DNA of 62,758 nucleotides. It comes from an uncultured Gammaproteobacteria bacterium. GTDB lineage: Bacteria; Patescibacteriota; Patescibacteriia; VMEV01; CAYQCH01. Of this stretch, positions 3,742-62,758 are shown one piece after another. The stretch lies in assembly GCA_964352335.1 (NCBI GenBank), contig CAYGRO010000008.1:1-62758 (forward strand), read 5' to 3'. The notes below the pieces were generated by a model. That model made no database searches, was not told the DNA's origin, and was given only the letters and a program-made list of their open reading frames with translations. Positions within the stretch are counted from its first letter, which is position 1, and every line of letters starts with the position of its first letter. Position numbers and translations under genes: made by a program.

Positions 3742-3787
3742 CTAAAAATTGAAACGACCCTCCGCCACCTAAAGGTAGCGGAGGGTC
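3742..3787 (-). terminator. Terminator of GC-rich cassette A
   Basis: 10-bp GC stem gaccctccgc/gcggagggtc, followed on the minus strand by a T-rich run. Confidence 0.6.
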
Positions 3788-3824
3788 AAGGAGTCAAGAA
3801 GCCCACGCCCTCTAGGAGCGAGGA

Positions 3825-4607
3825 TCAGGACTTCCGAGGAAGCACGACCGACGACACGCAGAGACTGCTGCCCCCGCAGTAGTCGTTGTAGCGGTTGATG
3901 TGGAGGCCGACACGGTCGATGCTGCAGACATCTACCCAAAAGCCGCACGACGAGTTGGAACTAGTGCGGACATAGAGCGTCTTTAACAGGCGCTCCCCGT
4001 TGACGAGGAAGTGCAGGATGATCATGTTGATCACCTGCCTTGCCGACGGAACCTCGTCCGAGTCGGGAATGAGCTTCATCTGCTCATTCCACGTCTTCCT
4101 CCTGGAGCTGTCCACGGGCGTCTTGCGGATGAGTCGCCAGCACGCCTTGTCGGTCTCCTGAGCGAATGCCTCGCTGTTGAACCAGTCCTGCGGGTAGAAC
4201 AGCCCATTGCGAGCCTTCTGGCGCACGTTGAGGATGCTCAGGCCGATGTCGGCAACGAGGACGTGCGTTTCGGCACATGCACGCAGGGTCTCCTCGGAGA
4301 ACGGGATCTCAGCGAGGGTAGCCAACGGAATCTCACTCACATGCCCGAAGTGCTGGACGACCTCGGGCAAGCCGAGGAAGTTCGTCCTCATGATGGCACG
4401 GGCGGCCTTCTGGCTCTCGGTCTCTTGAACCTCAACCACGATTCCACCACGCCGCCAGAACGTCACGAGACGCTGGCGGAAGTCGGGATCGTCGATCGGT
4501 GTTTGCAGGTCATCGAACGTCAGACCTGCGTCCATGAGGCGACGCATGCACTCAGCGGTGCGAGCAATCACCTTACTCGGGTCGGGGTGGGCAACGGTGC
4601 TAGCCAT
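3825..4607 (-). CDS. hypothetical protein (GC-rich cassette A)
   Basis: Long ORF in a high-GC segment. Start moved to the ATG at 4607 (MASTVAHPD), which is preceded by AGGAGG at 7 nt. No family recognised. Confidence 0.7.
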   Translation of the reverse strand: MASTVAHPDPSKVIARTAECMRRLMDAGLTFDDLQTPIDDPDFRQRLVTFWRRGGIVVEVQETESQKAARAIMRTNFLGLPEVVQHFGHVSEIPLATLAEIPFSEETLRACAETHVLVADIGLSILNVRQKARNGLFYPQDWFNSEAFAQETDKACWRLIRKTPVDSSRRKTWNEQMKLIPDSDEVPSARQVINMIILHFLVNGERLLKTLYVRTSSNSSCGFWVDVCSIDRVGLHINRYNDYCGGSSLCVSSVVLPRKS

Positions 4608-4764
4608 CGCTAACCTCCTAATACGAAATGCTATCCGAGTCGCTCGGATCACACGACAAGCCTCCCTATCCGCCTCTCTGGCGTAAACATGAGACAAGTG
4701 GACTGATTGTCACCTAGGGTGGCAAACATAACACTTACCTGATATAAGTAGTTTATGACTTAGA

Positions 4765-4793
4765 AATATGGCACATTTTAGCTTAATTGTCAA
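4765..4793 (-). promoter_or_regulatory. sigma70-like promoter for cassette A
   Basis: TTGACA, 17-nt spacer, CATATT on the minus strand, in AT-rich DNA upstream of a leader of about 160 nt. Confidence 0.4.
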
Positions 4794-4890
4794 ACGAATT
4801 CCAAGAATGAGATATTGGCCCCCCCCCTCTGTATTTCAACTTCTTTTACAGATATAATAAGTTTATCAATCTAACTTTAACCTCACCCCT

Positions 4891-5289
4891 ATGCTAAAAA
4901 AACTTCTTTCTAATAAAAAAACAATTGCTTATTGGTTCTTTACTCTTTGGATGTCTTTAGGTTTAACATCTGCAGGAATTGTGCAGTTATTACGAATGGA
5001 TTTTGAAGTAGAATTTATTGTAAACCTTGGTTACCCTATTTATTTTTTGACGATTCTAGGGCTATCTAAATTACTTGGAGTTATTGCTGTGCTTATTCCT
5101 AAATTCCCGCTTTTAAAAGAATGGGCCTATGCGGGATTTGTTTTTACCATGCTCGGTGCCATTTATTCAGAAGTTGTAACTAATTCTCCATTTAGTGAAA
5201 TCTTCCCACCAATATTAATGCTCATTCTTATTTCACTTTCATGGTATTTACGACCAGCAAGTAGAAAAACTTGTAGCAAATGTGCATAG
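4891..5289 (+). CDS. DoxX-like (DoxX_2) membrane protein
   Basis: 132-aa, four-TM ORF with LGYPIYF and LKEWAYAGF motifs. Hairpin terminator at about 5325-5350. Confidence 0.65.
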   Translation: MLKKLLSNKKTIAYWFFTLWMSLGLTSAGIVQLLRMDFEVEFIVNLGYPIYFLTILGLSKLLGVIAVLIPKFPLLKEWAYAGFVFTMLGAIYSEVVTNSPFSEIFPPILMLILISLSWYLRPASRKTCSKCA

Positions 5290-5435
5290 ACTTAAAGATT
5301 GCATTCTCTTGTAAAAACACTCCTATGCGAGTGTTTTTCTTTTTTCTTAACAAAATCAAAAGGCCTCTACTCTTGAGCAATTATTCCACTTAGCAAAGCG
5401 GTTCAATTACTTTCAAATAGAGGCCCTTGTCGTCG

Positions 5436-6338
5436 CTAGCTTGCCTGAACGCCGAGTTCAGCAAGCCGGCTCTTGTGCACGATGAGCGTCTCGTAGTCGA
5501 TGAGGGTCGTGCTTGTGGGGGGCTTGGGGTTGATGCGTTCGAGCACCCCAGTCTCTTGGTGGACCTTGAGATAGACGAAGCCAAGCTTGAGCGAGATGCC
5601 CAAAACCGGAGTGTCGTCCCAGGGGGTTCTGTAACCGGGCATGAGCATGGCAGCCCCGACCTCCCCCTTCCAGAGTCGAGCCATACTGATGCCAATGCTT
5701 CCACCAACCACATCGAAGCCGTAGAAACGCTTCGATTCTTGTTGGGAACATTGGGCGTCCAAGAACCACAAGGCGCCAAGGGAATGACGACCAGGCACAT
5801 CGCGAAGCAGTATATGCTGCGAGAGCAATGTACGCTCGGGGTCGACGACCAATCGCTCTTCGTGTCGGAACTCGCTGATGCGATGCACCTTCTCCGACTC
5901 GGGGCGATAGTAGTAGATCTCTTGTGTCATCACATCACCGATGACAACACCAATGACCTCTTCCCCTACCACCAAGGCGAGCATGGTCCCAATGCCATGT
6001 GATTGCTTGCGGGCAAATGCCTTGGTGCCATCCAATGGGTCGACCGTGAAGTATGCCCCATCGGCGCGAAGAGACTCGACCTTAAGGTCATCTTCTTCGG
6101 CGAGAATGCCATAGCCTGGAAACCACTCTTTCAGCAGCCGAATGCAAATGTTCTGCGCGGCCCCATCTGCCGTTGTGACCAAGTCGTTGAGCTGACCACC
6201 ATACCCAAGTTTGGGCTTGGCTTCGAAGCTTCGACGCTGGTCACGGATTTCTTGGATTACCCTTCGGATAATCTCTTTCATGCCCGCCCCAATCATGCCT
6301 GGGACAAGCGGACCGTAGTCTTTTTGTTTCACTGTCAT
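5436..6338 (-). CDS. inositol monophosphatase / CysQ-family phosphatase (GC-rich cassette B)
   Basis: IMPase signatures ILAEEDD, VDPLDGTKAF and PWDDTPVLGI in a 300-aa high-GC ORF. Confidence 0.8.
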   Translation of the reverse strand: MTVKQKDYGPLVPGMIGAGMKEIIRRVIQEIRDQRRSFEAKPKLGYGGQLNDLVTTADGAAQNICIRLLKEWFPGYGILAEEDDLKVESLRADGAYFTVDPLDGTKAFARKQSHGIGTMLALVVGEEVIGVVIGDVMTQEIYYYRPESEKVHRISEFRHEERLVVDPERTLLSQHILLRDVPGRHSLGALWFLDAQCSQQESKRFYGFDVVGGSIGISMARLWKGEVGAAMLMPGYRTPWDDTPVLGISLKLGFVYLKVHQETGVLERINPKPPTSTTLIDYETLIVHKSRLAELGVQAS

Positions 6339-6371
6339 GCAACCTTCTCTTTCTTTTTTTCATGACAAAAA

Positions 6372-6400
6372 ATTGTACCAAACCTGTCTGTAAAAATCAA
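6372..6400 (-). promoter_or_regulatory. sigma70-like promoter for cassette B
   Basis: TTGATT, 17-nt spacer, TACAAT on the minus strand, about 30 nt upstream of the SD gaagg and the ATG. Confidence 0.45.
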
Positions 6401-7314: not shown

Positions 7315-8184
7315 ATGAATTTTCCGTTCCAATTGGTGATCAGTTTGATCGCCGCTATCGACTCAGGTCGAAAAGCAGTGATCCCTGATCACGAGCTGGC
7401 TGAGATCCCGCCCGAACGGCGGGTCGAAAAGCCAGCGGCAGCTTCCCTCATCTTCCCTTCCAACTGGGAAGACTACCTCACCAACCTGCGCAACTTGCCC
7501 ATCCTCTTGGGGGTGAACAAGTTCCGTGGATGGCTCGAGGTCCTCGGAGGCGGCCTCCAGTCCGTCGAGGAAGAAGCCATGGATGCGATCATGGGAGGCG
7601 CTAGCTTCGCCAACCTGATCGACCCGAAGAACGAGAAGCCCACCAACTACGGTGGCGCGTTCTACCACATCCAGGCCCAAGAACTTCTCGTGCGCGGGCA
7701 GATGCGTCAGCTGGTCTACAACACCCGTGGTGGTGACAACGACCAACTCGCCGCATTGCGCGAAGTCATCGAGGAAGGCATCGTCAACGGTGTGGCCATC
7801 ATCAGTATGCTCCCCAACGCGGTCAATGTCGGCGTTCCCTTCAGCCCGTTCAACCTCAACCTCCGCCGTGTGTTGGAGAAGAAGTTCCCAGGCATGTATG
7901 ACGGATCCGAGACCTACGCGCAAATTGTCGCACAGCGAGGCTTTCTCGCCACCGTCGACGTAAATGCGCCCGACCTCCCCAAGTTCGCTGACAACACTGA
8001 GATCAGTGGTCTGAGGTGGGTCACCCTGGCCGAGCTCTTCGAGCTTGCCAAGGCAAAGGCTGGCCAAGAGGCTGACCTTTCGCCGAATGTGCAGGACAGC
8101 GTCTTGCGCAATACTGTTCCACTCCACTTCATGAAGTGGTTCGTTGAGTGGCTCATCGCTCAACAACGGGACTTCTCCTGGTAA
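7315..8184 (+). CDS. hypothetical protein (GC-rich cassette C)
   Basis: 289-aa high-GC ORF. Start at the ATG at 7315 (MNFPFQLV), preceded by AGGAGG. No family recognised. Confidence 0.7.
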   Translation: MNFPFQLVISLIAAIDSGRKAVIPDHELAEIPPERRVEKPAAASLIFPSNWEDYLTNLRNLPILLGVNKFRGWLEVLGGGLQSVEEEAMDAIMGGASFANLIDPKNEKPTNYGGAFYHIQAQELLVRGQMRQLVYNTRGGDNDQLAALREVIEEGIVNGVAIISMLPNAVNVGVPFSPFNLNLRRVLEKKFPGMYDGSETYAQIVAQRGFLATVDVNAPDLPKFADNTEISGLRWVTLAELFELAKAKAGQEADLSPNVQDSVLRNTVPLHFMKWFVEWLIAQQRDFSW

Positions 8185-8338
8185 CAGACTCAACCGCCAA
8201 TCTTTAGGCAACTGAGACTGGGTAAGAGGGTGTAATGATTTTCCCGACTACCACACCAAGAGAAATAAACTAGTTTTAGACTCTATAGAAAAGCGGCTAC
8301 ATCCATTCATGGGTGCAGCCGCTTTAAAACGTCCTTTT

Positions 8339-11776: not shown

Positions 11777-11781
11777 ACATT

Positions 11782-14225: not shown

Positions 14226-14260
14226 TTTTAAACCCCAGGGATTGTGTATCTACCTGGGGT
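14226..14260 (-). terminator. Terminator of GC-rich cassette D
   Basis: Hairpin accccagg/cctggggt, followed on the minus strand by ttaaaatt. Confidence 0.5.
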
Positions 14261-14287
14261 TGCTAGACCGTTTTAGGGTCGTGAATC

Positions 14288-14611
14288 TCAGTTTTGGGAG
14301 GGATCATGCCCATCCGCTTCCTTTGCGTTCAAGATCGTATTGAGCGCAAGAAAGAGCAATTCGCTCTCGGTGAGCGGGTTTGCAATGACCACGAGTGGGT
14401 CTTGCTGATAGTATTCACTCAGTGGCGACTGGTGAATACTCTGAAAAAGAGTTAGGGCCTCATTTTCAGAAATAGCACCGAAGCTTTGTAACGTCTGTAG
14501 CAAATCGATGGCTTCATCAGCTGAGAAAAACGCCGAAGAAACTGACTTCCCTACTTTGATATAGCCCGTAGGGCCACTGGCTGTCTCGAAGACAACAAAT
14601 TGAATACCCAC
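14288..14611 (-). CDS. hypothetical protein (GC-elevated cassette D)
   Basis: 107-aa ORF with a GTG start preceded by the SD gaaggaagg. No family recognised. Confidence 0.55.
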   Translation of the reverse strand: MGIQFVVFETASGPTGYIKVGKSVSSAFFSADEAIDLLQTLQSFGAISENEALTLFQSIHQSPLSEYYQQDPLVVIANPLTESELLFLALNTILNAKEADGHDPSQN

Positions 14612-14652
14612 GAGACACCTTCCTTCTATTTTTGTAGCGGACGAGAAAATCT

Positions 14653-14681
14653 ATAGTACCTCTCAACACAAACCAAGTCAA
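14653..14681 (-). promoter_or_regulatory. sigma70-like promoter for cassette D
   Basis: TTGACT, 17-nt spacer, TACTAT on the minus strand, directly after the stop of the upstream gene. Confidence 0.45.
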
Positions 14682-16295: not shown

Positions 16296-16329
16296 AAAAA
16301 AACTCCGCCATAGTTGACGGAGTTTTTTT
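16296..16329. terminator. Bidirectional hairpin terminator
   Basis: An A-run, then stem actccg/cggagt, then a T-run. Confidence 0.5.
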
Positions 16330-16403
16330 GTCCCACGAACTTGCCTGGTGGCTTATTCATGGGAATGGAACGGCTATCTGGAAATGGCCGCACCACTTAC
16401 CGA

Positions 16404-17807
16404 CTAGTGCCGGCGATCCCAAGGATTGCGCTTGGGCTTGTGACGGACCTTGTCGCAGATCGTCATGCTCTTCTGGCGTGCGAGCACGAATGAGGCAAAC
16501 AAGTCGATCTCGCGAAGAGTTTCGTCGATGGGAATGTAGAAGTAGTCCGAGAAGACTACCTCACACAACCAATCTGCGTACTCCAAGCAAAAGGGACATT
16601 CTCGCTTCAGCAATTCCACGACGACCTTGAAGATCTCCTCACGGTGAGGAAATAGCAAGTCCAGCAATCTCCTGAAGACCCTCTGCGTGATCTTGAGAAG
16701 ATGCCCGCGCTCGTAAGCGTTGGCAAGTCGTGAGAAAAGCTCTTCAGCGGTCGAAGAAGAACTGACCCACTCGAGGTCACGAAACCCCTGAGCAGTAGCC
16801 TTGGCTTCTTCGAACAAGTATTCGAAGCGAGCCAGCTCCGTCTCGTAGGTCGCCCCCGGTTGCAATGAGGCACTAATCGCACGTGCGAGTCTGGCGGGAT
16901 CCTTGATCTGCGCTTCCTTGAGGTTGCGCAGGATGGTTCCCGGCTTGATTCGCTTGCAGCGACTACCGATGAGCGATGTGTAGTAGTCACGTAGATTTTG
17001 CTTTTCTTCTTGTACCTTTGACTCAGCCGATATCTCAGCAACGAGACGTTGGTAATCGGCAGCCTGGGGAGCTGAGAGCTCGATTTCGTATCGGACTTCT
17101 TCGAACCGATAGTAGGCATTAATCAATTCTGCCTCCTTGTTGAGTAGATCGATTGCCTTCTTGGTGTCTGTCACCATGAGATGACGAATCTGCTGGAGCA
17201 CGCCCTCCGCCATCTGTTCTTGACGATGAAGAAGTGTCGTCTCCAGCTTGAGACGAAGTTCTGCAACCTGCTCACCACCAGCCTCAACGACAAGTGGGTC
17301 GGCCGAACGAATGATCTCCAGAGCTTGCACGATATCACCGAAGACGAACTCACTGAAACGGCTGAAGGAAACAACCGCGTGAATCTGATTGAGGAAGTAC
17401 TCAACTTCCCCTGCCATCTGGCTGAGCTGAGCACGATGACCAGCATCAACCAGCACTTGCTGTTTGATGATTTCCTGTGCGAGCTTTCGCACCGCACTTG
17501 GCTTGATCGGCTCAATACCAACCAAAGCCTTGGAGTTACGCCAGGCTTGCCGTGCCTGTTGCTCAAACTCACGGGCTCCTTCGAGATCAGCTCGCTGCAA
17601 AGCAGCTAAACCATATTCGATGTTCTTATCGAATTCGAGTTGGAATCCATGAAGCTTCGCCAAGAGCCCTAGATCAACGGAACCAGGCTCATCATGAATC
17701 TCAGTTCGATGCGCCTCGATGGAAGCAACCATCTTCTTCGGGCAGGGCTTTGCACTCTGCATGCCGTGCTTGCTCTTCTTCTTTCGCTTACTCTTCGAAC
17801 GACTCAT
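16404..17807 (-). CDS. hypothetical alpha-helical protein with Lys-rich N-terminus (GC-rich cassette E)
   Basis: 467-aa high-GC ORF. Start set at MSRSKSKRKKKSK, preceded by the SD gagagagg. No family recognised. Confidence 0.7.
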   Translation of the reverse strand: MSRSKSKRKKKSKHGMQSAKPCPKKMVASIEAHRTEIHDEPGSVDLGLLAKLHGFQLEFDKNIEYGLAALQRADLEGAREFEQQARQAWRNSKALVGIEPIKPSAVRKLAQEIIKQQVLVDAGHRAQLSQMAGEVEYFLNQIHAVVSFSRFSEFVFGDIVQALEIIRSADPLVVEAGGEQVAELRLKLETTLLHRQEQMAEGVLQQIRHLMVTDTKKAIDLLNKEAELINAYYRFEEVRYEIELSAPQAADYQRLVAEISAESKVQEEKQNLRDYYTSLIGSRCKRIKPGTILRNLKEAQIKDPARLARAISASLQPGATYETELARFEYLFEEAKATAQGFRDLEWVSSSSTAEELFSRLANAYERGHLLKITQRVFRRLLDLLFPHREEIFKVVVELLKRECPFCLEYADWLCEVVFSDYFYIPIDETLREIDLFASFVLARQKSMTICDKVRHKPKRNPWDRRH

Positions 17808-17934
17808 GAGAACCTCTCTCATTGAAATTGGAAAGACCAACCACCTATTTCTAGGGGAAGCCACAATCGTATGGCCTTTTTTATTGCTAAAATAAGCAAT
17901 TTTTAAGGATCTACGATTATTAGAAAACCATTGC

Positions 17935-17963
17935 ACAATAACATTTTTTATTGTTCTTGTCAA
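17935..17963 (-). promoter_or_regulatory. sigma70-like promoter for cassette E
   Basis: TTGACA, 17-nt spacer, TATTGT on the minus strand, followed by an AT-rich leader of about 125 nt. Confidence 0.45.
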
Positions 17964-18017: not shown

Positions 18018-18040
18018 TGGTACCCGGGGCGGGACTCGAA
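18018..18040 (-). repeat. 23-bp direct repeat of the tRNA-Leu 3' end (att-like)
   Basis: tggtacccggggcgggactcgaa is identical to 20005-20027. Confidence 0.9.
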
Positions 18041-18517
18041 ACCACCTAGACCGAAATCGGAACTTGGCTGAACTCGGCGATTCTTCGCTAAGGCTAGCGC
18101 GAACTGAGGACGCTGGGAGACCTCTCTACTCTCCAGGAATACCCCGCTTTCGTCAGCTCTTGGGCAACCGGTGGGCAACAATATCTACCCAGACTGGATG
18201 GTGTTCCTCCTTGCCAGCTCCTATGCCAGACAGTCAGCAGACGTTCTCGACTGCTGGCTGCTCGCCCTTATGAAGCAACTCCAGCAAGGTCGCGGGCGGG
18301 CGAAGTGGGGCCTCATTGCATACGGTTACGCCCCTCAACGGGTCGAATGTGACACTCTGGGAGAGGGGGGGGGCGGCGTTGACACCCACCTGGCCGTACA
18401 TGTATGTTGTGGTAGGATCGTAGTGACTTGCCGAAGATGCACTGGTAACACGTCTGTGAATGATTGGTGTCCCGCCTGCAAAGAGAAAGCTTCCCTTTGC
18501 AGGAAGGCACCCCAATC

Positions 18518-18871
18518 ATGCACTCTTCTCAACCGTCCTCCGATCAAGCGTCCCCTGAGTTCGGCGTAGGCCTGCCAATTGAACTCCTCGCCTACTACTT
18601 GGCAGTAGCAAGCAAGAGCAATCGGACAATTTTCCACGCTGACAACCGTAAGATCACGTTGGAAGCGATTCTCACTTACTACCCATATCTCGTCGGAGAC
18701 GCAAACCCCTGCACGAGCTTTCATCCTGGGGTGCAGGCATGGGAGCTCGCAAGCTTTGTAAACCTGCACCGCCGCCATGTAGCGCCTCGCGAAGTAGCTT
18801 CTTCTCGAGACCCGCGAATCGTCTGGAGCAGCGCACTAGAGATAGCGCATCGCCTCCCTCCACGTCCCTAG
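18518..18871 (+). CDS. hypothetical protein inside the tRNA-Leu-associated element
   Basis: ATG preceded by aggaagg. Hand count over 73 codons gives GC1 42, GC2 30, GC3 46. A strong terminator follows. An antisense ORF in the exact mirror frame competes with it. Confidence 0.35.
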   Translation: MHSSQPSSDQASPEFGVGLPIELLAYYLAVASKSNRTIFHADNRKITLEAILTYYPYLVGDANPCTSFHPGVQAWELASFVNLHRRHVAPREVASSRDPRIVWSSALEIAHRLPPRP

Positions 18872-18898
18872 GCAGCCACGCTACCTCCGGCCCCCGAT

Positions 18899-18943
18899 AC
18901 ACCCCCTGCTTCTCACGAAGTAGGGGGTGTTTTTTCGTTTTTT
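18899..18943 (+). terminator. Rho-independent terminator inside the element
   Basis: 9-bp stem acaccccct/agggggtgt, followed by tttttcgtttttt. Confidence 0.7.
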
Positions 18944-18958
18944 CTCTCGGCTATCACA

Positions 18959-19341
18959 CTACTTCGTGGGATCTGAGTCGCCGTAGAGCCAAACCTCCCT
19001 CGGCAGAGTCCCGGGGCTGTCAGCGAACGTTCCACTAGCCGAAACGGTGAAGTCCTCAACAACGGCGAAGTCGCCGAAGGAGTCGGGGGAGTATCGGCGC
19101 AGTCGGAGATGCTCGTCTCCCGCAACGGTCGAGGACTTCGCCCCACAGAACGCATTACCTCCGATCTCAGCGGCCTGCTAGGGTAACCCGTGCTCAGCAC
19201 GCCAGACAGGGGCAGCAAGACTCGCTTGGCTCCGTTCTCGTCGCGACCTTCGGGCCCCAACTCCAGCGTCACCAGCACCTTGCGAGGCGTCCGACGTCCC
19301 TGTACAATTCCGATAAGAGAGGGGATATCTTGGATCGCAAC
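18959..19341 (-). pseudogene. frameshifted ORF remnant
   Basis: Two protein-like reading segments (..VLVTLELGPEGRDENGAKRVLLPLSGVLSTGYP and QAAEIGGNAF..VEDFTVSASGTFADSPGTLPREVWLYGDSDPTK*) lie in different frames. There is no ATG or SD. Confidence 0.3.
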
Positions 19342-19521
19342 TCAAACCCCAGACACTGCACAGCAGGCGGGCGCCCGAGCATCGGAATTGTGACGGCTCT
19401 AGCCAACGAAGAACGGTGCGTGCTTGGAAGGCCGGGATTCGAGGTTAGGAATTGAGTGAGTGAGGCTTAGTGTTGGCTTGCAGATTCTCTGCGGGCCTGA
19501 CTGAGCCTCACGGAGTTGGAA

Positions 19522-19737
19522 ATGAATAGCATACAAGACAATTCGCAGCAGCAGCGCCTCCTGTTCAGCAGGGATCGCGAAGGACGCCCTTTGTATCTCT
19601 GGAAGCCAAAAGGAGCTGGGCTTGACATTTACGTCGGGCGGATCAGGTTTGAACGTTCGTCAGAAGACAGCGAGAAGGACATCGAAGAGGTACTTCCCTT
19701 GTGGCACCGTATTCTACGGTTCTTTACGGGGATCTGA
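19522..19737 (+). CDS. hypothetical small protein inside the element
   Basis: 71-aa ORF with GGAG 6 nt upstream of the ATG and a terminator about 100 nt downstream. Confidence 0.3.
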   Translation: MNSIQDNSQQQRLLFSRDREGRPLYLWKPKGAGLDIYVGRIRFERSSEDSEKDIEEVLPLWHRILRFFTGI

Positions 19738-19835
19738 TCTTCCTCCGGCGCGGATAGCAGACAACATAGCTGAGTAGCGGTCCGCCGCCACAATGGCCGA
19801 CGATCTGCGTCCAAGCGGATCGTCGCGAAGCCTGC

Positions 19836-19874
19836 GAGCACCTCCTTTTCGGGGAGTGCTCGTTTTCCATTTCC
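19836..19874 (+). terminator. Rho-independent terminator inside the element
   Basis: Stem gagcacctcc/ggggagtgctc, followed by gttttccatttcc. Confidence 0.5.
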
Positions 19875-20004
19875 TGGTTTTCTCCTCCCGATACTCTGCC
19901 GGCGCCGCGTTAGCGCCTGGGCAGTCACGCGTTTGACTTTTGGGCAACCGGCGGGCAACCAAATTCTCAGCAATAATAAAAGCCCCTTAAAAAGGGACTT
20001 TTAC

Positions 20005-20089
20005 TGGTACCCGGGGCGGGACTCGAACCCGCACGTCCAATGGACACAAGATTTTAAGTCTTGAGCGTCTACCATTCCGCCACCCGGGC
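20005..20089 (-). tRNA. tRNA-Leu (anticodon UAA), CCA encoded
   Basis: Folded by hand: acceptor gcccggg/cccgggt, anticodon stem caaga/tcttg with loop ctTAAaa, a long variable arm, T arm gcggg-ttcgagt-cccgc. Confidence 0.92.
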
Positions 20090-20653: not shown

Positions 20654-20824
20654 CCGCTAGAGATTTATAAACAAAAGCCCTGCCCTTTTGCTCTGCAGCA
20701 AAATTGAACAGAGATCATGTGCAGATACTATAATCAGTTTTTTGATTTGAGTCAATATCAAAGTAGAAAGCCCCATCATAGACGACAAGGCTCTCTTGTC
20801 CATCCGATTTGGGGCACTAGAACG

Positions 20825-21238
20825 TTACGCACCTTTAATCCAGAGGCTAACCATGGGGGTTCCCTTTGCCTTAGGCGAAATACGGATGAGTCTCTCGGTC
20901 TGAAGCTTTCGAAGATAGTGCTTGATCAGCGACTCTTCGAGCCCCATATCTCTGGCGAGCTTTGCAACGGACCTATCGCCGTCATGCGTTAGAAAACGCA
21001 AGATCTCGCATGCGGTATGGCCGTTCACGTCAACGGCCCTCGCGCCTTGTTTCTTGACCCGTGCATGTTCGTCGTCGATGTGGTCGTGGCTAGTGAGCAA
21101 TTCCTTGACGTACGGAAGTTCATCAAGGTGATCACTGCAGTAGGGTTTTTGTTCGCTTGGTCTTTTAGCACACCCAGAGTGTGAACACCGCCCTGAACGA
21201 CGACGCCCTTCTTCTCTAGGAATCTCAAGATATCGCAT
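20825..21238 (-). CDS. hypothetical DNA-binding-like protein (Cys/His motif plus C-terminal winged-helix-like region; cassette F)
   Basis: 137-aa GC-elevated ORF with CSHSGCAKRPSEQKPYCSDH near the N-terminus. The C-terminal LARDMGLEESLIKHYLRKLQTERLI resembles a wHTH recognition region. Confidence 0.55.
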   Translation of the reverse strand: MRYLEIPREEGRRRSGRCSHSGCAKRPSEQKPYCSDHLDELPYVKELLTSHDHIDDEHARVKKQGARAVDVNGHTACEILRFLTHDGDRSVAKLARDMGLEESLIKHYLRKLQTERLIRISPKAKGTPMVSLWIKGA

Positions 21239-21341
21239 GAGGATCACTCTCTTTCCTGTTAGAATACCGATCCAGAATTACCAAGTAGATTATACCAAAT
21301 AATTCTCAACCTCCCTCTTCGCTTTTACAAACGAAGAGGGA

Positions 21342-21761
21342 TTAGTCCTCTGAATAGTAGAGCTGGTTGTTTTTGAAAACGAAGAAGCGCTGTTCTGGCC
21401 ACGCTTGCGAACGCCTCTTCCATTGAAGGAGAAAAAACAACTGGTAATCTAGTTGAAAGTGCCTCGCCAGTTTCATCTGGTAGGCGCCACTGTGTAAACT
21501 ACCAAGGTCAATCCCTTCTTGCGTATAGATATCAAACCCGTTTCCAGGCAAATCCACAGAACGCAAGGCAGTGACTTTACTCATCTCTAGAGGAAAACGG
21601 AATTGCAAAATGAACGCTTGCTCATCTACGAACCATCTCCCTACCATGCCCTCTCCCAGCTCGACCTCATGCCAGTTGGCTGGGTCTTGTTGAGGAGGAA
21701 GTGAAGAACACCCCATCGCCGATACAACGACGAGGAGAAAAAGAGTCGTGATCCGACGCAT
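21342..21761 (-). CDS. hypothetical lipoprotein (cassette G)
   Basis: 139-aa ORF with the signal peptide and lipobox LLVVVSAMGC. Confidence 0.6.
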   Translation of the reverse strand: MRRITTLFLLVVVSAMGCSSLPPQQDPANWHEVELGEGMVGRWFVDEQAFILQFRFPLEMSKVTALRSVDLPGNGFDIYTQEGIDLGSLHSGAYQMKLARHFQLDYQLFFLLQWKRRSQAWPEQRFFVFKNNQLYYSED

Positions 21762-21905
21762 AATCGCTCCTTATGTTGTTTGGCGAGTAGTATTTTATAG
21801 CAAGAAAAAAGTTACAAGTCAATGAAGTAGTCATTTACCTCCCCTGCCTACCTTCTAAAGCTAATGAAGGGGCAAAGAAAAGTATGTAAAATAAAAAAAA
21901 CCTTG

Positions 21906-27141: not shown

Positions 27142-27172
27142 GAAGCCCAACCGTTAATGCCGGTTGGGCTTC
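27142..27172 (-). terminator. Hairpin terminator of cassette H
   Basis: 12-bp stem gaagcccaaccg/cggttgggcttc. Confidence 0.5.
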
Positions 27173-27207
27173 GAATGTTTTACATGCCTGGAGAGGCATG
27201 CCCACGG

Positions 27208-35465: not shown

Positions 35466-35503
35466 AGAGGCCCCGAGCAGTTTCCTGCTGGGGCCTCTTT
35501 GGT
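35466..35503. terminator. Bidirectional hairpin terminator between smc and cassette I
   Basis: Stem agaggcccc(g)agcag/ctgctggggcctct, followed by a T-run. Confidence 0.6.
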
Positions 35504-35531
35504 TGTTCTCTGGAGATGAGAGAACGCGTGG

Positions 35532-42730: not shown

Positions 42731-42943
42731 AGCTTGCACACTCAAGACATTCGCGAGTATCGGTAATCAACAAGTCTACTGACGAACCAGTCGACATGTT
42801 GAGACCACTCCTAAATTGGAGTGCGTGCAGGGTTGTAAGCATTAAAAGCTTCCCCTGCATTTTTGGTTATCATAATCTTTCTTGCGTGAATCCAGTGTCG
42901 CAACTTTGAGACACTTAACCACCCAAGAAAACTGGAGAGAATC

Positions 42944-44353
42944 GTGGAGAACAACCACTATCGTAATAACCAAATCGCCTACCGCAGTTGCCAAGTGATT
43001 GCGGTGGCCCTCGTCGTCATCGCTTTCATTATGGGGGTGGTGATTTCGAACCCACCTCAGAGTGTGACCCCACAAAACGGGTCAGTCTCACCCGTGGACA
43101 GCAAGCTTACCCCAACCACTGCTTCGCCAACACCATCCTCATCAGCTCTCAGCTCATTGAACTCGCAGGCGATGTTCATGATGGCCTATGAGCGAAGGGG
43201 GGAAACCCAAAAGATGGTCCTCGCCCAACTAACCTTGGGCGACAAGGGTTTGGAAATCGAACCTGTCCCACAAAGTGACGAGTTTCAACTACTCGGAACA
43301 AGGATGGCAACCATTGGCCTTGTACCAATGAACCGAAGCGGAATGTTTCAATGGCTCACCCTGAATCTAAGAGAGAACAACCACTTCCTCTTTAGGACGT
43401 CCCCCAACCTGGGGGTAACAGGGCTTGAGCTAACGTTCGCAGGGACGAGAGATATCGCCATGGAAGGCGAGAAAATCTTAGCCCTCGTCAACGACAAGTT
43501 CGTCACGATAGAGGACAATAAGAAACCAATGTTCCAGCCTCTTCCTGGAGGTGGGACGCTCTCGAGAATGTTTCAGGTGCATCAAGAGGGAAAGCTGGTT
43601 GGAACCTATTTTACGCAAATAGGAGACACCCCCCATCGGGGGAATTATGTCTTCTACAAACCCTCCAACCGTGCTGAACTCATGTTGACCCCGTTGTACA
43701 TTTTCCCACAGTCGATGGCATCGCTCGGCGACAAGACCTACATCTTCGGGATCGACAAGAACCGTCAGTTCAAGATGCTCGACCTAAACATCTCTTCCAC
43801 AGATGGAGAAGTCGTAAGGTCGACCACACTCGGTATGAAGTCGCCTCCGAACAGTATCGGCGTTGGCCACGCCTTCGTGCATACCCACCCCGACTCGGGA
43901 GCTCGAATGGCCTCACTCCTCATGTGGGACGACCCAAACCTACGACGGTTCGACGTGGTGACCGGTGCGGAACTTTCACCTACCGCCCTGAACATGTTCA
44001 CTGCAGGCATAGGTTCTGGCCACGAAGCTCGACAAAGCGTACAGCTCAAGCACAAGGACAGGCACTCAGCCTTCACCATGCAGAGCCTAGATGATCAAGG
44101 TAAGCCAACGGCAAGCCTCGTCGTCGGCCACGGTAAAACGTGGAAGACCATGAATGTTCGAGGCACCACCAATGGCCTCACCGCCAATGGTCGCTGGCTC
44201 GTCTGGGACGTGCGCAATACAGAAAGCGGGGCTGACCAAGTCCTGTTCCTCGACCTCGACGGCGAGATGAACGAATTCAGTGGCTCCCTCGTTCTGGGCA
44301 AATCCAACCCAGGCACCGAGATGCCAAGCTTCCTCGCGATCAATACGCGCTAG
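42944..44353 (+). CDS. hypothetical membrane-anchored beta-rich protein (GC-elevated cassette L)
   Basis: 469-aa ORF with a GTG start and the SD ggaga, an N-terminal TM helix, a Ser/Pro/Thr linker and a long beta-rich domain. Confidence 0.65.
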   Translation: MENNHYRNNQIAYRSCQVIAVALVVIAFIMGVVISNPPQSVTPQNGSVSPVDSKLTPTTASPTPSSSALSSLNSQAMFMMAYERRGETQKMVLAQLTLGDKGLEIEPVPQSDEFQLLGTRMATIGLVPMNRSGMFQWLTLNLRENNHFLFRTSPNLGVTGLELTFAGTRDIAMEGEKILALVNDKFVTIEDNKKPMFQPLPGGGTLSRMFQVHQEGKLVGTYFTQIGDTPHRGNYVFYKPSNRAELMLTPLYIFPQSMASLGDKTYIFGIDKNRQFKMLDLNISSTDGEVVRSTTLGMKSPPNSIGVGHAFVHTHPDSGARMASLLMWDDPNLRRFDVVTGAELSPTALNMFTAGIGSGHEARQSVQLKHKDRHSAFTMQSLDDQGKPTASLVVGHGKTWKTMNVRGTTNGLTANGRWLVWDVRNTESGADQVLFLDLDGEMNEFSGSLVLGKSNPGTEMPSFLAINTR

Positions 44354-44360
44354 GAAGACA

Positions 44361-44409
44361 AGAGCAGGGTCGAGGCACCAACCGCGCCTCCCCTGCTCTT
44401 TCTTTTTGT
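44361..44409 (+). terminator. Terminator of cassette K/L
   Basis: Stem agagcaggg..ccctgctct with inner gaggc/gcctc pairs, followed by tttctttttg. Confidence 0.65.
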
Positions 44410-59052: not shown

Positions 59053-59225
59053 AGCGTTTAGTCTTGAGGCAGACCCAAATAAACAGATCAACTCAAACAA
59101 GAAAAAAATAATAAAATGATTTCATTAAGATTATATCACATATCTAAAAGAAGTTATCCCCACCTGACAAAATTTCCTTTATAAAATGTTCTTTATGAAA
59201 CCGACAATAAAAAATCAACCAAATT

Positions 59226-59567
59226 TTATTGATTCGTATTTAGTTTTAGTATAAAACCCGAAGAAGAAATCGCTTTAATTTTAACAGCAGGCTCAACTTT
59301 TTTTCGTATGCGAGAAACATGCATATTTAAAGCATGACTATTCGTAGAATATTGTGAAAAAGCATGAAATTCAAGGTCTTCTTTTTTAACAAAAATACGA
59401 GAATGTAGTAAGAGATATAAAAATATTCTATATTCTGTCTTTGTCAATGATATCTGACGATTATCTATCTTGATACTTTTTTCAGACAAATCTGCGGTAA
59501 CTGAACCAATACGTAACTCTTTCTGGGAAAATAAAAGACAAAGCGCTGCTCGGATATTACTACCCAA
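59226..59567 (-). CDS. stand-alone OmpR/PhoB-type winged-helix DNA-binding protein (no receiver domain)
   Basis: ISLTKTEYRIFLYLL ... ALNMHVSRIRKKV ... GFILK matches Trans_reg_C. The only in-frame start is TTG at 59567, so the 5' end is uncertain. Confidence 0.65.
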   Translation of the reverse strand: MGSNIRAALCLLFSQKELRIGSVTADLSEKSIKIDNRQISLTKTEYRIFLYLLLHSRIFVKKEDLEFHAFSQYSTNSHALNMHVSRIRKKVEPAVKIKAISSSGFILKLNTNQ

Positions 59568-59601
59568 ACAGCGCCTCTTGTATCGACTCCAGAGCTAGGC
59601 C

Positions 59602-59835
59602 CTAGATTTCGGTCGAATTGATCCCGTCCATAGGCGAAGCGATGGGATTGTCCTCCCCCGCCCATGGCTCCTCGTTCTCAGCAAGGGCTGCTTGCTGTTC
59701 AAGCCCAAGACGGAATTCCTCCAGAGCGCTCCCCGTCAACTCGCTGGGGTCGATCAAGTCGAACCCCGAACTAGTTGCTTCTGCCTTGCGCAATCGACGC
59801 GAGGCTTTTTGATCAGAATCAGATGGTGAACTCAT
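59602..59835 (-). CDS. hypothetical small acidic protein (GC-rich cassette M)
   Basis: 77-aa ORF starting at the ATG at 59835 with the SD gagggg, downstream of the Ku-like gene. Confidence 0.5.
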   Translation of the reverse strand: MSSPSDSDQKASRRLRKAEATSSGFDLIDPSELTGSALEEFRLGLEQQAALAENEEPWAGEDNPIASPMDGINSTEI

Positions 59836-60043
59836 ATTTCCCCTCAGAAAACAAAACCGCCACTCGAAGTGAGTGTACGGCTGTGGTGTGAATGCATATG
59901 CCACTTGGCAATGTCTGTACCACTATATCAAACTCTTTCGATTTTTCTAAAAAAATCTGTGGAAAAAGAAAAGCCCAATGCTTTTCCAAACACGAGATGC
60001 GCTATCTCTTGTCTGGTCAAGCATTGGGGGTAAACGCTAGCGA

Positions 60044-61096
60044 CTACTCGCTAGTTGCGTTCGAGGTGCTGGTATCGAGCACTGCGACGGCTCGTCTGAG
60101 GAACTTGAAGAAGTACCGACCAGCTGCTGCACGAACCATGCCGTCATGGTCGACGAAGGTTTCATGCGTGTACTGCCCTCCCTCGATCTTGGACTTGTGT
60201 AGCCCCTCAAGAGAGGTGTTGAACCGGGTCTTATTGAGGTCAGCATGCCCGTCTTTGAGGACCGGGAGTGCTGCGAAACCTGCTCGCAGGTTGTCCAGTG
60301 CCTCATCCGACGCCTCAAAGTCATCGGGCATTTCCGAGATAGGCCTGAGCTCATCGAGGCTAAGCAAGTCGAAAAGCATCATCGACTTGCCATTTGACGA
60401 CGGACCTAGCAAGGCGACATGCTCGTACTCTCCCGTCACTTCCTGCTCATGCCGCAAAGCGTAGTGAACAACAAGACGCTCGCCAGTGGCCGACACATGG
60501 GCGAGCATCTCCCAAAGCGCTTGCTGGTCTTCGGTGGCCTGCCCCACGACCTGCCTGGTATTGATGTAGCGCTCATCGGCCGTCCGGTCATTGGCCTGTC
60601 GTAGACCGCGAACGACCATGTACTTGAACGCATCACGCCCATCACCAGGTTCGGAAAGGCGAAGAGCGTTTAGCTTGGCCAGCTCGTCAGGGGTTAGCGT
60701 GACCAAGTTCTTCTCACCTTTGGCGATGTAGTACTTGGTTTGAACCTCGCCGGGCTTGAGCTTGCGAGTGCAAGTCTCTTGATCGCAATAGGGCTCAGAC
60801 TCGATCTTGGTTGGGTCGAGCGCCTTCTTGCAAGTCATGTGATTGCAGGCCGTTTGCTTGGTGGGCTGAGGAGCCTTACCTCCAAGAGCAGGCCCACTGA
60901 GCGGACGATCGCAATGATGGCACAATTCCAAATAGGAGATCTTACTCCCACAGGCATCGTGCACCTCCATTTGAGCGAAGGGTTGCCGGTCTTGAACCGG
61001 ATAGAGCTTGATGTTGATCGAGGCGACACCCTCGGGGTTGTTGAGGTACTCGGCTGGATCACCGAAAATCAAAGGAAGGTTGGCAGCAGAACGCAT
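60044..61096 (-). CDS. Ku-like DNA-end-binding protein with Cys-rich insertion (GC-rich cassette N)
   Basis: By-eye similarity to bacterial Ku: SINIKLYPV..F.Q.EVHD.CGSKISY..C..C; KYYIAKGEKNLVTLTPDELAKL; ALWEMLAHVSATGERLVVHYALRHEQ; MMLFDLLSLDELRP. An extra Cys-containing segment of about 60 aa sits after the first block. Confidence 0.45.
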   Translation of the reverse strand: MRSAANLPLIFGDPAEYLNNPEGVASINIKLYPVQDRQPFAQMEVHDACGSKISYLELCHHCDRPLSGPALGGKAPQPTKQTACNHMTCKKALDPTKIESEPYCDQETCTRKLKPGEVQTKYYIAKGEKNLVTLTPDELAKLNALRLSEPGDGRDAFKYMVVRGLRQANDRTADERYINTRQVVGQATEDQQALWEMLAHVSATGERLVVHYALRHEQEVTGEYEHVALLGPSSNGKSMMLFDLLSLDELRPISEMPDDFEASDEALDNLRAGFAALPVLKDGHADLNKTRFNTSLEGLHKSKIEGGQYTHETFVDHDGMVRAAAGRYFFKFLRRAVAVLDTSTSNATSE

Positions 61097-61202: not shown

Positions 61203-61211
61203 GTTATTCTT

Positions 61212-62180
61212 CTAGTTGATTGCAGATGAAATAGCTAAGCGAATTGCCCCCATTGCTGGCTTAACTTTAGGAAGAATAAATTTTGCTTTAGGATAGTTTT
61301 GTCTAACGAGTTTTTTAAAGCGTTTTTGTACAAGCGGGTTTCTTTGTATTACCCCACCAATAAGAACAATAGGAAACTCTTGTGACTTTTTAAATTGTAA
61401 TTTCGAGGCCACAGCTTTTAAAGAGAGAAGCAATTCATTTGCTGACTCAAAACAAATTTGTTTAGCAATTTTGTCACCTATTAATGCTTCTTCTTCTACA
61501 AATAATGCAAGTTGCCCAATATCATGTTTACTATAATCATCATTATAGACAATGGGTAATAACTCTCTGGCTGTTTTAATTTTATAGTGTTTGTAAATGA
61601 CTTTTTCTAATGTTGTTTTGGGACCTCGACCATCATAACTTTTTACTACCGCTCGCAAAGCCTTCCAACCTTGTTCCCAACCACTCCCTTCGTCAGAAAG
61701 TTTCCAGTCTAGTCCATTGGCCCAGGCTTCTTTTCCTTTTTTGTCTCTTCCATAACAGTTGGAACCTGTACCACCAATAAGACAAATACCTTCTTGGTCA
61801 GTAATCCCGCTCCAAAAACCAATAATCGTATCGTTTACAACTTGTAGTCGTTTTGATTGTTTTGGGAGATGTTTTGCAAAAGCTTTTTTCAGCAATTGAT
61901 ATGCTTGATCATGTAGTTTTTTATTATCTAAACCAGCAAATCCTGCGCCGATAGCCGTTAACTGAGTTCTATTATTCAATTTGGCTTTTTTAAACAAAGC
62001 TTGCAAACCATCATGTAAATTGTTGATGATTTCTTTTTCCGAAATTGTATGTAAATTTGTAGGGCCAGAATAATGACGAGCTAAAATAGTTTCCTGCTCA
62101 TCTGTTAAAACCATATCGGTTTTTGTCGCTCCCCCGTCAATTCCTAAAAAATAGTGTGGTTGATTTTGAAGTTTTTTCAT
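61212..62180 (-). CDS. BadF/BadG/BcrA/BcrD-type ATPase (N-acetylglucosamine kinase-like)
   Basis: N-terminus YFLGIDGGATKTDMVL plus GGTGSN and GGV motifs typical of the family. Confidence 0.8.
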   Translation of the reverse strand: MKKLQNQPHYFLGIDGGATKTDMVLTDEQETILARHYSGPTNLHTISEKEIINNLHDGLQALFKKAKLNNRTQLTAIGAGFAGLDNKKLHDQAYQLLKKAFAKHLPKQSKRLQVVNDTIIGFWSGITDQEGICLIGGTGSNCYGRDKKGKEAWANGLDWKLSDEGSGWEQGWKALRAVVKSYDGRGPKTTLEKVIYKHYKIKTARELLPIVYNDDYSKHDIGQLALFVEEEALIGDKIAKQICFESANELLLSLKAVASKLQFKKSQEFPIVLIGGVIQRNPLVQKRFKKLVRQNYPKAKFILPKVKPAMGAIRLAISSAIN

Positions 62181-62216
62181 ATGAGATTATTTTAGCATAT
62201 GAAACAGGGCTTCGCC

Positions 62217-62489
62217 TCATGGAGAAGCAAAGCCCGACTTGTCAGTCTTGTCCTTGTACTCAGAGCCCGTTCCAAAGTCTTGGTCAGACTTGAACAGCTT
62301 CTTGCACTCAGGACAGTAGTCGATCCGCTTGATGCCACCATTGATGAGCCGAGAGTCATCGTAATGCACCTCACGGTACTTCTCTTCATTGACCCAGTCT
62401 TCTTTCGTTTCCGGGTCCTTCATTTGCTGACAACAAATGCAGTAAAGAAGTTTTTCTTTTTCTTTTTCTTTTTCTTTTTCCTCTTCCAT
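62217..62489 (-). CDS. hypothetical zinc-ribbon-like protein with (EK)n tract (cassette O)
   Basis: 90-aa ORF starting at MEEEKEKEK with the SD aggaagggg. The pairs CICC and CPEC form a putative Zn ribbon. Confidence 0.55.
   Translation of the reverse strand: MEEEKEKEKEKEKLLYCICCQQMKDPETKEDWVNEEKYREVHYDDSRLINGGIKRIDYCPECKKLFKSDQDFGTGSEYKDKTDKSGFASP
62451..62480. repeat. Hexanucleotide SSR (tttttc)x5
   Basis: Five perfect tandem units that encode EKEKEKEKEK in cassette O. Confidence 0.9.
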
Positions 62490-62550
62490 TTTCCCCTTCC
62501 TTTGGGTTGACGAGTTTTTGAGAGTATCAGTTTTATCTAGCAAAAGCAAG

Positions 62551-62600
62551 GCTAAAAAGACAGAAGCTCCAGGGATCCCTTGCGGGTTCCCTGGAGCTTC
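62551..62600 (-). terminator. Rho-independent terminator of the truncated upstream GC-rich gene
   Basis: 13-bp stem gaagctccaggga/tccctggagcttc, followed on the minus strand by tgtcttttt. Confidence 0.7.
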
Positions 62601-62623
62601 GATACGCCGATTGTCTCGGACAG

Positions 62624-62758
62624 CTAGTTGAGCTGGTGAGCGGTCGGACCGACCTTGGCCTCCATCTCCTTCAGGCGCATGGTGGCCTTGAACTTGGCCG
62701 TGTAGATCTTGATCCCAATTTCGCGCGCCTGCTCTTGCTCTTGCGTCCTTCCTTCTCC
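62624..62758 (-). CDS. 3' end of a GC-rich gene truncated by the window edge
   Basis: The open frame runs to the window edge and translates ..QEQEQAREIGIKIYTAKFKATMRLKEMEAKVGPTAHQLN*. A terminator follows. Confidence 0.5.
   Translation of the reverse strand, partial: GEGRTQEQEQAREIGIKIYTAKFKATMRLKEMEAKVGPTAHQLN

Follow-up and report, generated by a model that had tools for sequence, protein, structure and literature searches.

The stretch of DNA analyzed here, contig CAYGRO010000008.1 of assembly GCA_964352335.1 (62,758 nt, referred to below as the window), is a contig of the Patescibacteria or Candidate Phyla Radiation (CPR), and the relatives of its TyrS are all from Patescibacteria/CPR metagenome-assembled genomes (MAGs). 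Its overall GC content is 41.1%. The backbone genes include tsaD, a beta-CASP RNase gene, DoxX, infB, rbfA, smc, rpsP, tyrS, valS and trxB, together with a type IV pilin-like protein and large Ig, cohesin and LysM surface proteins, and are low in GC throughout. Five tRNAs were the sole Rfam matches in the window (gathering thresholds and E<=1), and exact look-ups of the window proteins returned no record and cluster look-ups no names. Between the backbone genes lie 13 GC-rich segments, the cassettes or blocks A, B, C, D, E, F, G, H, I, J, K, M and N, whose composition, translation signals and history are the subject of this study.

All 13 segments that a sequence-only reading had picked out as GC-rich were elevated (0.468-0.598, pooled 0.546) relative to 0.365 outside them, where 900-bp windows had a standard deviation of 0.025 and a maximum GC of 0.43; its hand count of 34/60 GC at 4011-4070 was exact on recount. 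The GC histogram of 200-bp windows was bimodal, and a two-state hidden Markov model (HMM) recovered near-identical blocks covering about 24% of bases: 3755-4723, 5420-6315, 7350-8232, 16330-17775, 18017-20089 and 20770-21208 in the first half and 27145-29605, 35467-36102, 36825-37664, 42058-44398, 59543-61094 and 62566-end in the second. The weakest blocks were D (14226-14650), G2, J and N, with GC 0.47-0.50. At the block edges GC rose from about 0.3 to about 0.6 in less than 50 nt, which bears out the proposal that the atypical composition ends at transcription-unit borders. GC at third codon positions (GC3) was 0.49-0.83 in the cassette open reading frames (ORFs) and 0.18-0.28 in the backbone genes, with third-position adenine in the cassettes down to 0.05; spacers inside the islands were mildly raised (GC 0.38-0.44), the GC3 excess over the backbone being much larger, about +0.3 to +0.6.

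Mutagenesis of the type seen in diversity-generating retroelements (DGRs) was considered as a cause of the sense-strand adenine depletion and rejected, as third-position T is depleted too; this depletion, together with the rise of C- and G-ending codons in all codon families, indicates a general GC3 shift. Simple translational optimization to Watson-Crick-matched C-ending codons was also rejected, since the G-ending Lys, Glu and Gln codons rise as well. A comparison of codon usage with high-GC CPR genomes was not diagnostic. The blocks and their features are as follows (CDS, coding sequence; SD, Shine-Dalgarno motif).

Cassette A, 3755..4793, minus strand: hairpin terminator 3755-3788; CDS 3825-4607, 260 aa, CPR DGR variable-protein family; SD AGGAGG 4614-4619; promoter-like TTGACA-17-CATATT 4765-4793; GC 0.59, GC3 0.77.
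Cassette B, 5420..6400, minus strand: CDS 5436-6338, 300 aa, inositol-monophosphatase family; GC3 0.65; SD AGAAGG; promoter-like site 6372-6400.
Cassette C, 7315..8232, plus strand: CDS 7315-8184, 289 aa (ORF opens at 7276); SD AGGAGG; narrow ORFan.
Cassette D, 14226..14681, minus strand: hairpin 14226-14262; CDS 14288-14611, 107 aa, ORFan; SD AGGAAGG; promoter-like site 14653-14681; GC merely 0.47.
Cassette E, 16296..17963, minus strand: terminator 16296-16329; CDS 16404-17807, 467 aa, ORFan; promoter-like TTGACA-17-TATTGT 17935-17963.
Block F, 18018..20030, no strand assigned: 1,987-bp GC-rich (0.58) element, no intact ORF.
Cassette G, 20770..21780, minus strand: between tRNA-His and tRNA-Arg; G1, CDS 20825-21238, ArsR-type winged helix-turn-helix protein (Pfam); G2, CDS 21342-21761, lipoprotein-like, SD AAGGAG.
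Cassette H, 27142..29726, minus strand: terminator 27142-27172; CDS 27208-29529, 773 aa; SD AGGAG; promoter-like site 29698-29726.
Cassette I, 35467..36119, minus strand: CDS 35532-36119, 195 aa, ORFan; SD GGAGG (-13 kcal/mol); GC3 0.83.
Cassette J, 37006..37664, minus strand: CDS 37006-37650, NlpC/P60 hydrolase.
Cassette K, 42056..44398, plus strand: K1, CDS 42056-42730; K2, CDS 42944-44353.
Cassette M, 59543..61096, minus strand: CDS 60044-61096, 350 aa, Cys-rich ORFan; possible small ORF 59602-59904.
Block N, 62217..62758, minus strand: small CxxC protein, CDS 62217-62489, SD AAGGAAGGGG; hairpin 62566-62600; second GC-rich ORF with stop at 62625, open at the window end.

The description of each segment as a self-contained unit of one or two genes with a promoter-like site, an SD and a hairpin terminator held for most blocks and failed for block F, which has no ORF >150 aa; the promoter-like matches were no commoner than in shuffled sequence and are thus weak evidence. 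Among the families that had been recognized, Pfam returned the inositol monophosphatase of B (PF00459, E 1e-15, 58.1 bits against a cut-off of 27), the NlpC/P60 hydrolase of J (PF00877, 57.9 bits against a cut-off of 23) and the PKD lipoprotein of H, which has a Gly-rich linker and a PKD/Ig domain. The proposed Ku-like protein was not found: no Pfam Ku match was obtained at E<=10 for M, C, I, E, K1, K2, N1 and M2, nor at E<=0.01 for the other cassettes. Most products are ORFans by Pfam, PHROGs and NCBIfam, as had been stated, and the latter two collections gave nothing for the ORFan cassettes. The PDB sequence search with M and C gave no match, and the structure model of M (predicted local distance difference test, pLDDT, 31) was unusable. 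Cassette C gave a NUDIX hint below threshold and had 8 relatives among 1.84e9 representative proteins; in a word-based search the sole match of cassette I was the query itself. By eye, the protein of E has a basic N-terminus and many helix-forming residues, and K1 and K2 have N-terminal hydrophobic stretches resembling membrane anchors.

The cassettes are mutually unrelated at the DNA and protein levels and have no shared insertion motif at their junctions. No integrase or transposase was found in the window by Pfam, and a flanking duplication is confined to the tRNA-Leu block (F), as the sequence-only reading had noted, the other blocks being without direct repeats. The cassettes are dispersed, with their own promoter-like sites and without the shared junction repeat or the integrase of an integron. 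The attribution of the families to high-GC bacteria and their phages did not stand, as the nearest relatives are CPR proteins. The phage and viral collections contained no relatives of A, B, C, H or M.

Shine-Dalgarno signals and the cassette families A and B

The cassette genes have AGGAGG or GGAGG 5-9 nt upstream of the start codon, whereas backbone genes with canonical N-termini (tsaD, infB, rpsP, trxB, valS and others) have no SD. Anti-SD duplex energies, computed with the lineage's own 16S anti-SD lying outside the window, had a median of -8.5 kcal/mol over the 13 cassette starts, as against +0.3 over the 28 backbone starts (Mann-Whitney p 3e-7), and internal ATG/GTG codons in the same GC-rich DNA gave -2.8 against the -8.5 of the cassette starts (p 3e-7). 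The same split between cassettes and backbone was present in the nearest relative at hand, L001. Of the 7 GC3-elevated ORFs found in other low-GC CPR loci, 6 were preceded by an SD of -6 or stronger. Moreover, a CPR genome of 56% GC has an SD on many hypothetical genes and none on core genes, so the SD split is present even without a GC split. As for the 28 backbone leaders themselves (20 nt upstream), G is scarce between -11 and -1, T occupies -1 in 71% of them, and positions -3/-2 are often rich in C (e.g. ccctctATG, cacccctATG), which may be a lineage-specific initiation context.

Cassette A has 68 homologues, for which all source names that identify a taxon are CPR, one being just 'bacterium'. 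In two loci, L024 and L025, the family A gene adjoins bAvd and an RVT_1 reverse transcriptase (RT), and L024 has a 115-nt repeat with a variable repeat (VR) at the 3' end of the gene (10656-10770) and a template repeat (TR) downstream (11064-11178), each mismatch between the two being an adenine in the downstream copy. This adenine-specific TR/VR pair identifies family A as a DGR variable protein; of 81 family A loci, at least 34 contain Avd and at least 27 contain RT. No TR, RT or Avd accompanies the window copy anywhere in the 62 kb, and the 3' end of cassette A has no second copy in the window. The AlphaFold2 model of cassette A was confident (pLDDT 89.4) and had no PDB match at E<=0.001, to a C-type lectin or otherwise, the best being the Bd2740 C-terminal domain (E 0.2), and judging from the model family A may be a non-canonical DGR target scaffold.

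A metagenome scan for family A provided 80 loci (L026-L105), of which the 47 non-identical ones with at least 1.5 kb of flank were used for the GC test. The GC of the gene exceeded that of its flanks in 47/47 distinct loci (p 1e-14), with 0.51-0.65 in the gene, 0.33-0.57 in the flanks and a slope on host GC of just 0.27. In 19 complete DGR cassettes the target had a GC of 0.557, compared with 0.384 in RT, 0.386 in Avd and 0.391 in the remainder of the contig. Divergence of target and RT co-varied (Mantel r 0.42, p ~0.006; mean identity 0.62 and 0.63), which indicates a shared history despite the 17-point GC gap. With the same genomes paired for both genes, the target also had the better-conserved four-fold sites: its value was 0.72 in the 11 close pairs, where the RT beside it had 0.51, and 0.48 overall, where the RT had 0.32. 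A strong SD preceded 97% of 66 family A genes, as against 0/25 RT and 0/26 Avd genes, and the leader aGGAGGTgtgcg-ATG was conserved; in the form aGGAGGTgtgcgATG the leader showed nucleotide-level conservation over many CPR genomes.

Homologues of cassette B, at about 50% identity, number in the hundreds, and those of their names that identify a taxon are all Patescibacteria, with two hits labelled just 'bacterium'. In L106 and L107 (CPR hosts of 56% GC) and in L108 (host GC 65%) the composition of the gene matches that of the genome; in L109 (host GC 42%) its GC3 is 0.54 against 0.36-0.44 in the neighbours, and in L111 (host GC 53%) the gene is at the top of the local range. Family B thus keeps a GC of about 0.50-0.61 over hosts of 0.36-0.56, with an SD on each copy examined, and by these sequence comparisons its GC is buffered against that of the host. 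In at least these two families, A and B, a GC of about 50-65% and an SD persist over dozens of CPR genomes irrespective of the host baseline.

Where comparable, the cassettes are resident, syntenic genes

L001 is an independent assembly with a baseline GC of about 50%, and its TyrS, ValS, Smc and TrxB share about 70-72% identity with their window counterparts. It is colinear with the window over 27.8-49 kb, and each of the four cassettes of this region (H, I, J and K2) is matched by a homologue in the corresponding slot: that of I between smc and rpsP (26% identity, E 1e-15, GC3 0.94), that of J between tyrS and rpsP (41% identity), that of K2 between valS and a DHH gene (32% identity) and that of H by trxB, with the same lipoprotein and Gly-linker architecture (E 2e-10). 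The four homologues have GC3 of 0.66-0.94 against a backbone of 0.44-0.57. The sequence-only reading had supposed recent, repeated capture from a high-GC partner or host; this is contradicted by the presence of H, I, J and K2 in the same slots, GC-elevated, in L001, and also by A and B being CPR families, with family A richer in GC than its flanks in every locus of the test. With the core at about 70% identity, saturation of synonymous sites is to be expected, by which point an import undergoing passive amelioration should have stopped standing out. Where comparison is possible, therefore, the cassettes are resident, syntenic genes and not recent imports. (L001, which is CAZDCG010000003.1, as well as L004, L007 and L021, is labelled 'uncultured Gammaproteobacteria bacterium' although it belongs to Patescibacteria by gene content and TyrS similarity, so that the label is probably mislabelled taxonomy.)

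A chimeric assembly or binning artefact that mixed in reads of a high-GC organism would be conceivable for a metagenome-derived contig. The thirteen clean alternations fall exactly on transcription-unit borders, however, the cassette families are CPR-specific, the genes, slots and composition contrast recur in the independent assembly L001, and the family A contrast is found again in dozens of independent contigs from metagenomes. Since the pattern is reproduced by independent assemblies, chimerism is so very unlikely as to be practically negligible.

The comparison with L001 also bears on differential AT drift, by which the ancestor of the clade would have been GC-rich and expression-linked selection or mutation would have pushed the core towards AT, far in the window and less far in L001, with weakly expressed accessory genes lagging behind or lying nearer a less AT-biased neutral equilibrium. 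The GC3 gap between the window and L001, which is about 0.31 in the backbone and only 0.03-0.17 in the islands, is as this account would have it, and so are the high-GC CPR genomes with an SD split and no GC split, the 58% GC of the ORF-less block F and the net flux of family A from strong (G or C) to weak (A or T) bases (S->W). Set against these, the intergenic DNA of the backbone and the fast-evolving surface proteins are AT-rich, which is hard to square with a GC-rich neutral equilibrium; simple lag is not expected with the synonymous saturation noted above; and family A is GC-rich in many unrelated low-GC CPR lineages. We consider drift of this kind decidedly unlikely. The surface-protein genes referred to are giant paralogues in tandem (51239-54628, 54632-57010 and 58345-59100) with several 60-90-nt repeats in common; their GC3 is about 0.2, so that fast-evolving surface proteins are not GC-rich as such.

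Ongoing horizontal flux is another account, in which a mobile accessory pool among CPR, or an unsampled GC-rich, SD-using reservoir (plasmids, phages or high-GC CPR), would supply alleles that are repeatedly swapped at conserved slots, GC and SD being donor signatures that never fully ameliorate. The products are accessory genes or ORFans, block F is a real integration at tRNA-Leu, A and G adjoin tRNA genes, and high-GC CPR genomes carry family B at native composition and SDs on many accessory genes, all of which would suit such a flux; so would the net S->W change of family A, its synonymous identity above that of its RT, and the divergence of cassette orthologues, far greater than that of the core, as in replacement-type islands. 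The sign of the offset is constant, however, with the gene richer in GC in 47/47 family A loci, 13/13 window blocks and 4/4 cassettes in L001, and family A, at a GC of 0.57, lies above nearly all sampled hosts (mean 0.42), so that mixing among those hosts cannot yield it. Within one DGR cassette, RT and Avd diverge in step with the target and yet are at baseline GC, and the same slots are occupied in L001, whose flanks are too diverged for homologous replacement. In addition, no integrase, direct repeats or common junction motif were found except at F, and no viral or plasmid relatives. We regard this flux as unlikely.

The residence and synteny of the blocks, the conserved GC-rich and SD syntax of CPR families, the invariant sign, the buffering against host GC and the unaffected state of co-inherited neighbours together require a gene-specific directional process, as opposed to a fading footprint of transfer. 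We therefore find it moderately probable that the GC-rich blocks are a long-resident class of CPR accessory genes, with a gene-specific directional force maintaining their GC-rich, SD-led syntax. Within this account some families may have first come in by ancient transfer between CPR lineages: high-GC CPR lineages exist, so ancient donors are possible, and the closest relatives of family B are nonetheless CPR proteins.

The force might also be sought in GC-biased gene conversion (gBGC) at recombination hotspots, arising from diversifying selection, frequent competence-borne recombination and biased mismatch repair. The cassette proteins evolve fast, one family is a hypervariable DGR target, and a DprA gene (Pfam DNA_processg_A) lies in one related CPR locus, L024, competence machinery being known from CPR more generally. 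The edges of less than 50 nt, the unaffected core neighbours 100-250 bp away (rpsP GC3 0.20) and the concentration at third positions argue against regional gene conversion or another regional effect at the DNA level; the spacers inside the islands are just mildly elevated, and the SD dichotomy would be left unexplained. To our knowledge, moreover, bacterial gBGC effects are far smaller than the GC3 excess seen here. Gene conversion is thus very unlikely.

The coupling of the GC excess with the SD suggests selection at the level of the transcript or of translation, and the directional force that we infer for the resident class is probably of this kind. By this mechanism, default initiation in the cell would use unstructured, AU-rich, SD-less leaders, and a GC-rich, structured mRNA could be loaded only via a strong SD, which would give the cassette genes a separately controllable, SD-dependent translation channel, or make them an unusually stable class of mRNA. 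Further, as a more speculative and in our estimate improbable step, each CPR cell might run two translation regimes, SD-independent for the AT-rich core and SD-dependent for an insulated GC-rich accessory set including DGR-diversified proteins, the expression of which would be switchable by ribosome state or partner contact. For the extreme variant, in which the cassettes have a generic bacterial or host-like expression syntax, with a consensus promoter, an SD, GC-rich codons and a hairpin terminator, because they are expressed in the host cell, as are transferred DNA (T-DNA) genes, we see at most a faint chance.

Several points weigh against the account of a resident class. The mechanism is one that we infer only, and the specific mechanism, within the overall account, would deserve no more than about one chance in three. 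Strongly GC-elevated ORFs were only 7/381 in other low-GC CPR loci, and in 35 other loci GC-rich islands made up 4.9% of bases, mostly the family A gene used to select them; with about a quarter of its length GC-rich, the window stands out even among CPR loci, and the account does not explain this high density of cassettes. CPR genomes of 56% GC hold family B at native composition and could be donors. The synteny evidence covers a single relative and the four cassettes H, I, J and K2, with A, B, C, D, E, G, M and N unplaced in L001. The starts of C, E, G1, H and J were picked partly by the presence of an SD, the eight unambiguous cassette starts alone ranging from -3.1 to -13.1 kcal/mol. The higher synonymous identity of A than of RT could reflect later coalescence via exchange among relatives. 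Finally, polarized third-position changes in family A had an S->W:W->S ratio of about 2.0-2.3:1, a net S->W flux that implies an equilibrium GC3 of about 0.54-0.60 against the current 0.74, so part of the excess GC may be decaying; neutral decay to host GC3 would give 5.6-9:1, the implied equilibrium is well above the host, and parsimony biases the estimate towards S->W.

Block F, repeats and other features of the window

Block F lies between two copies of a 26-bp sequence in direct orientation (18018-18043 and 20005-20030, matching at 25/26 positions), the sequence being the 3' end of tRNA-Leu(TAA), which lies at 20005-20089. A direct repeat of a tRNA 3' end is a classic mark of site-specific integration. 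The interior (18018-20004) has no ORF >150 aa and no Pfam match in any frame, its codon periodicity is weak and drifting, and no integrase gene was found by the attachment site among ORFs or by Pfam. No similar DNA was found in plasmids, phages or any fetched locus, and Rfam gave no known RNA family even at E<=1. The RNA fold z-scores, from 20 shuffles only, were -4.6 (minus strand) and -2.7. From these sequence features we read block F as a decayed integrative element at tRNA-Leu, unlike the other blocks, with a non-coding RNA cargo as a possibility. Inside it, a 23-nt direct repeat TTGGGCAACCGG[T/C]GGGCAAC lies near both ends (18160-18182 and 19942-19964) and a strong hairpin is followed by a T-run (18899-18930); these could be recombinase arm sites or RNA features.

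The intergenic DNA of the backbone contains GC-rich palindromic units resembling repetitive extragenic palindromic (REP) elements or miniature inverted-repeat transposable elements (MITEs), with the sequences CCCTCCCTTTYCAAGAGAGGG and AGCCTGCCTGCCGRCAGGCAGG.

REP/MITE-like units: 1102-1257, 36825-36987, 10086-10111, 11664-11735, 22083-22109, 10123-10259 and 39020-39164.

These units explain the small high-GC segment of 143 bp that the HMM called at 1102-1244, as well as part of block J, where the GC-rich stretch 36825-36987 adjoining the cassette is a REP-like repeat outside the gene. A 125-nt composite occurs twice (1133-1257 and 36863-36987, 74% identity); it was examined as a TR/VR pair and rejected, being a composite of REP-like palindromes. 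No reverse transcriptase was found in the window. A DHH/DHHA1 gene (10570-11601) is bracketed by 74-nt inverted arms (10048-10121 and 11705-11778, 80% complementary) made of REP-like hairpins. A low-GC 23S_rRNA_IVP gene (20131-20505), whose product is an Avd-like four-helix bundle, lies in the region 20097-20559 and is bracketed by 32-nt inverted repeats, 91% complementary, of CAACTGAC-type units; CAACTGAC-like units at 157-186 and 2662-2691 also flank the region 157-2691. Next to cassette G, the 5' half of tRNA-Arg(TCT) with 20 nt upstream is duplicated about 160 bp away (21905-21999 and 22104-22156, 89% identity), which may be the scar of a past rearrangement. A tRNA-Ile with anticodon TAT (UAU), uncommon among bacteria, lies at 45773-45845.

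Significance and comparison with known systems

Atypical composition is routinely taken as recent horizontal gene transfer (HGT), or as contamination in metagenome bins, and here it apparently belongs to old residents. If this is general, a genuine functional class of CPR genes would be systematically misclassified by detectors of islands and HGT and by tools for cleaning MAGs, and DGR targets would carry a whole-gene compositional signature that might aid in finding remote targets. CPR cells, which have very few ribosomes and few regulators, may in that case split translation between an SD-less core and SD-dependent structured mRNAs. No description of a GC-rich, SD-led gene class in CPR was found in the literature searched.

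Horizontally acquired islands and islets of atypical composition reportedly follow the amelioration model of Lawrence and Ochman, and those of bacteria usually have a higher AT content than the host, a patchy occurrence in relatives and a composition that ameliorates with time. The blocks of the window resemble such islands in their gene size, deviant GC and codon usage and accessory or ORFan products, and in the att-like repeat of block F at a tRNA. They differ in being always GC-richer, in being syntenic at about 70% core identity and in an offset that is family-wide; an integrase was found nowhere and a direct repeat at F only.

DGRs of CPR and DPANN are said to have been described by Paul et al. 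in 2017. Like DGR variable proteins such as Mtd of the Bordetella phage, the homologues of cassette A adjoin Avd and RT and have a C-terminal VR with differences at TR adenines. Unlike known DGR targets, the window copy is without RT, Avd or TR, and the target gene of family A is GC-rich throughout, with RT and Avd at host GC. A survey of DGRs (PMC5758913) mentioned only short GC-rich segments flanking the VR/TR and the IMH, and took deviant GC as evidence of transfer. Neither in this survey (PMC5758913) nor in the other literature searched was a description of whole-gene GC elevation of DGR targets found.

The division of genes by SD is like that of the Bacteroidia, which have a core genome without SD and a minority of genes with a strong SD. 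There, translation is SD-independent, the anti-SD is occluded, and rpsU keeps an SD for autoregulation. Here, by contrast, the SD minority consists of accessory or ORFan genes and is compositionally distinct, and the likeness is one of leader sequences alone. In the bldA/TTA genes of Streptomyces, a codon-partitioned regulon depends on a single rare codon and a dedicated tRNA. The cassettes likewise form a subset using codons rare in the rest of the genome, which would permit control at the translation step; they differ in that the shift to G/C endings runs through every codon family and that the analysis identified no dedicated tRNA. Replacement-type flexible islands, such as surface and O-antigen loci, are multi-gene clusters swapped among close strains and usually low in GC. 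The cassettes share with them the highly diverged gene versions in a conserved slot between core genes; unlike them, the cassettes are individual transcription units with a consistent excess of GC, and the comparison spans a deep split.

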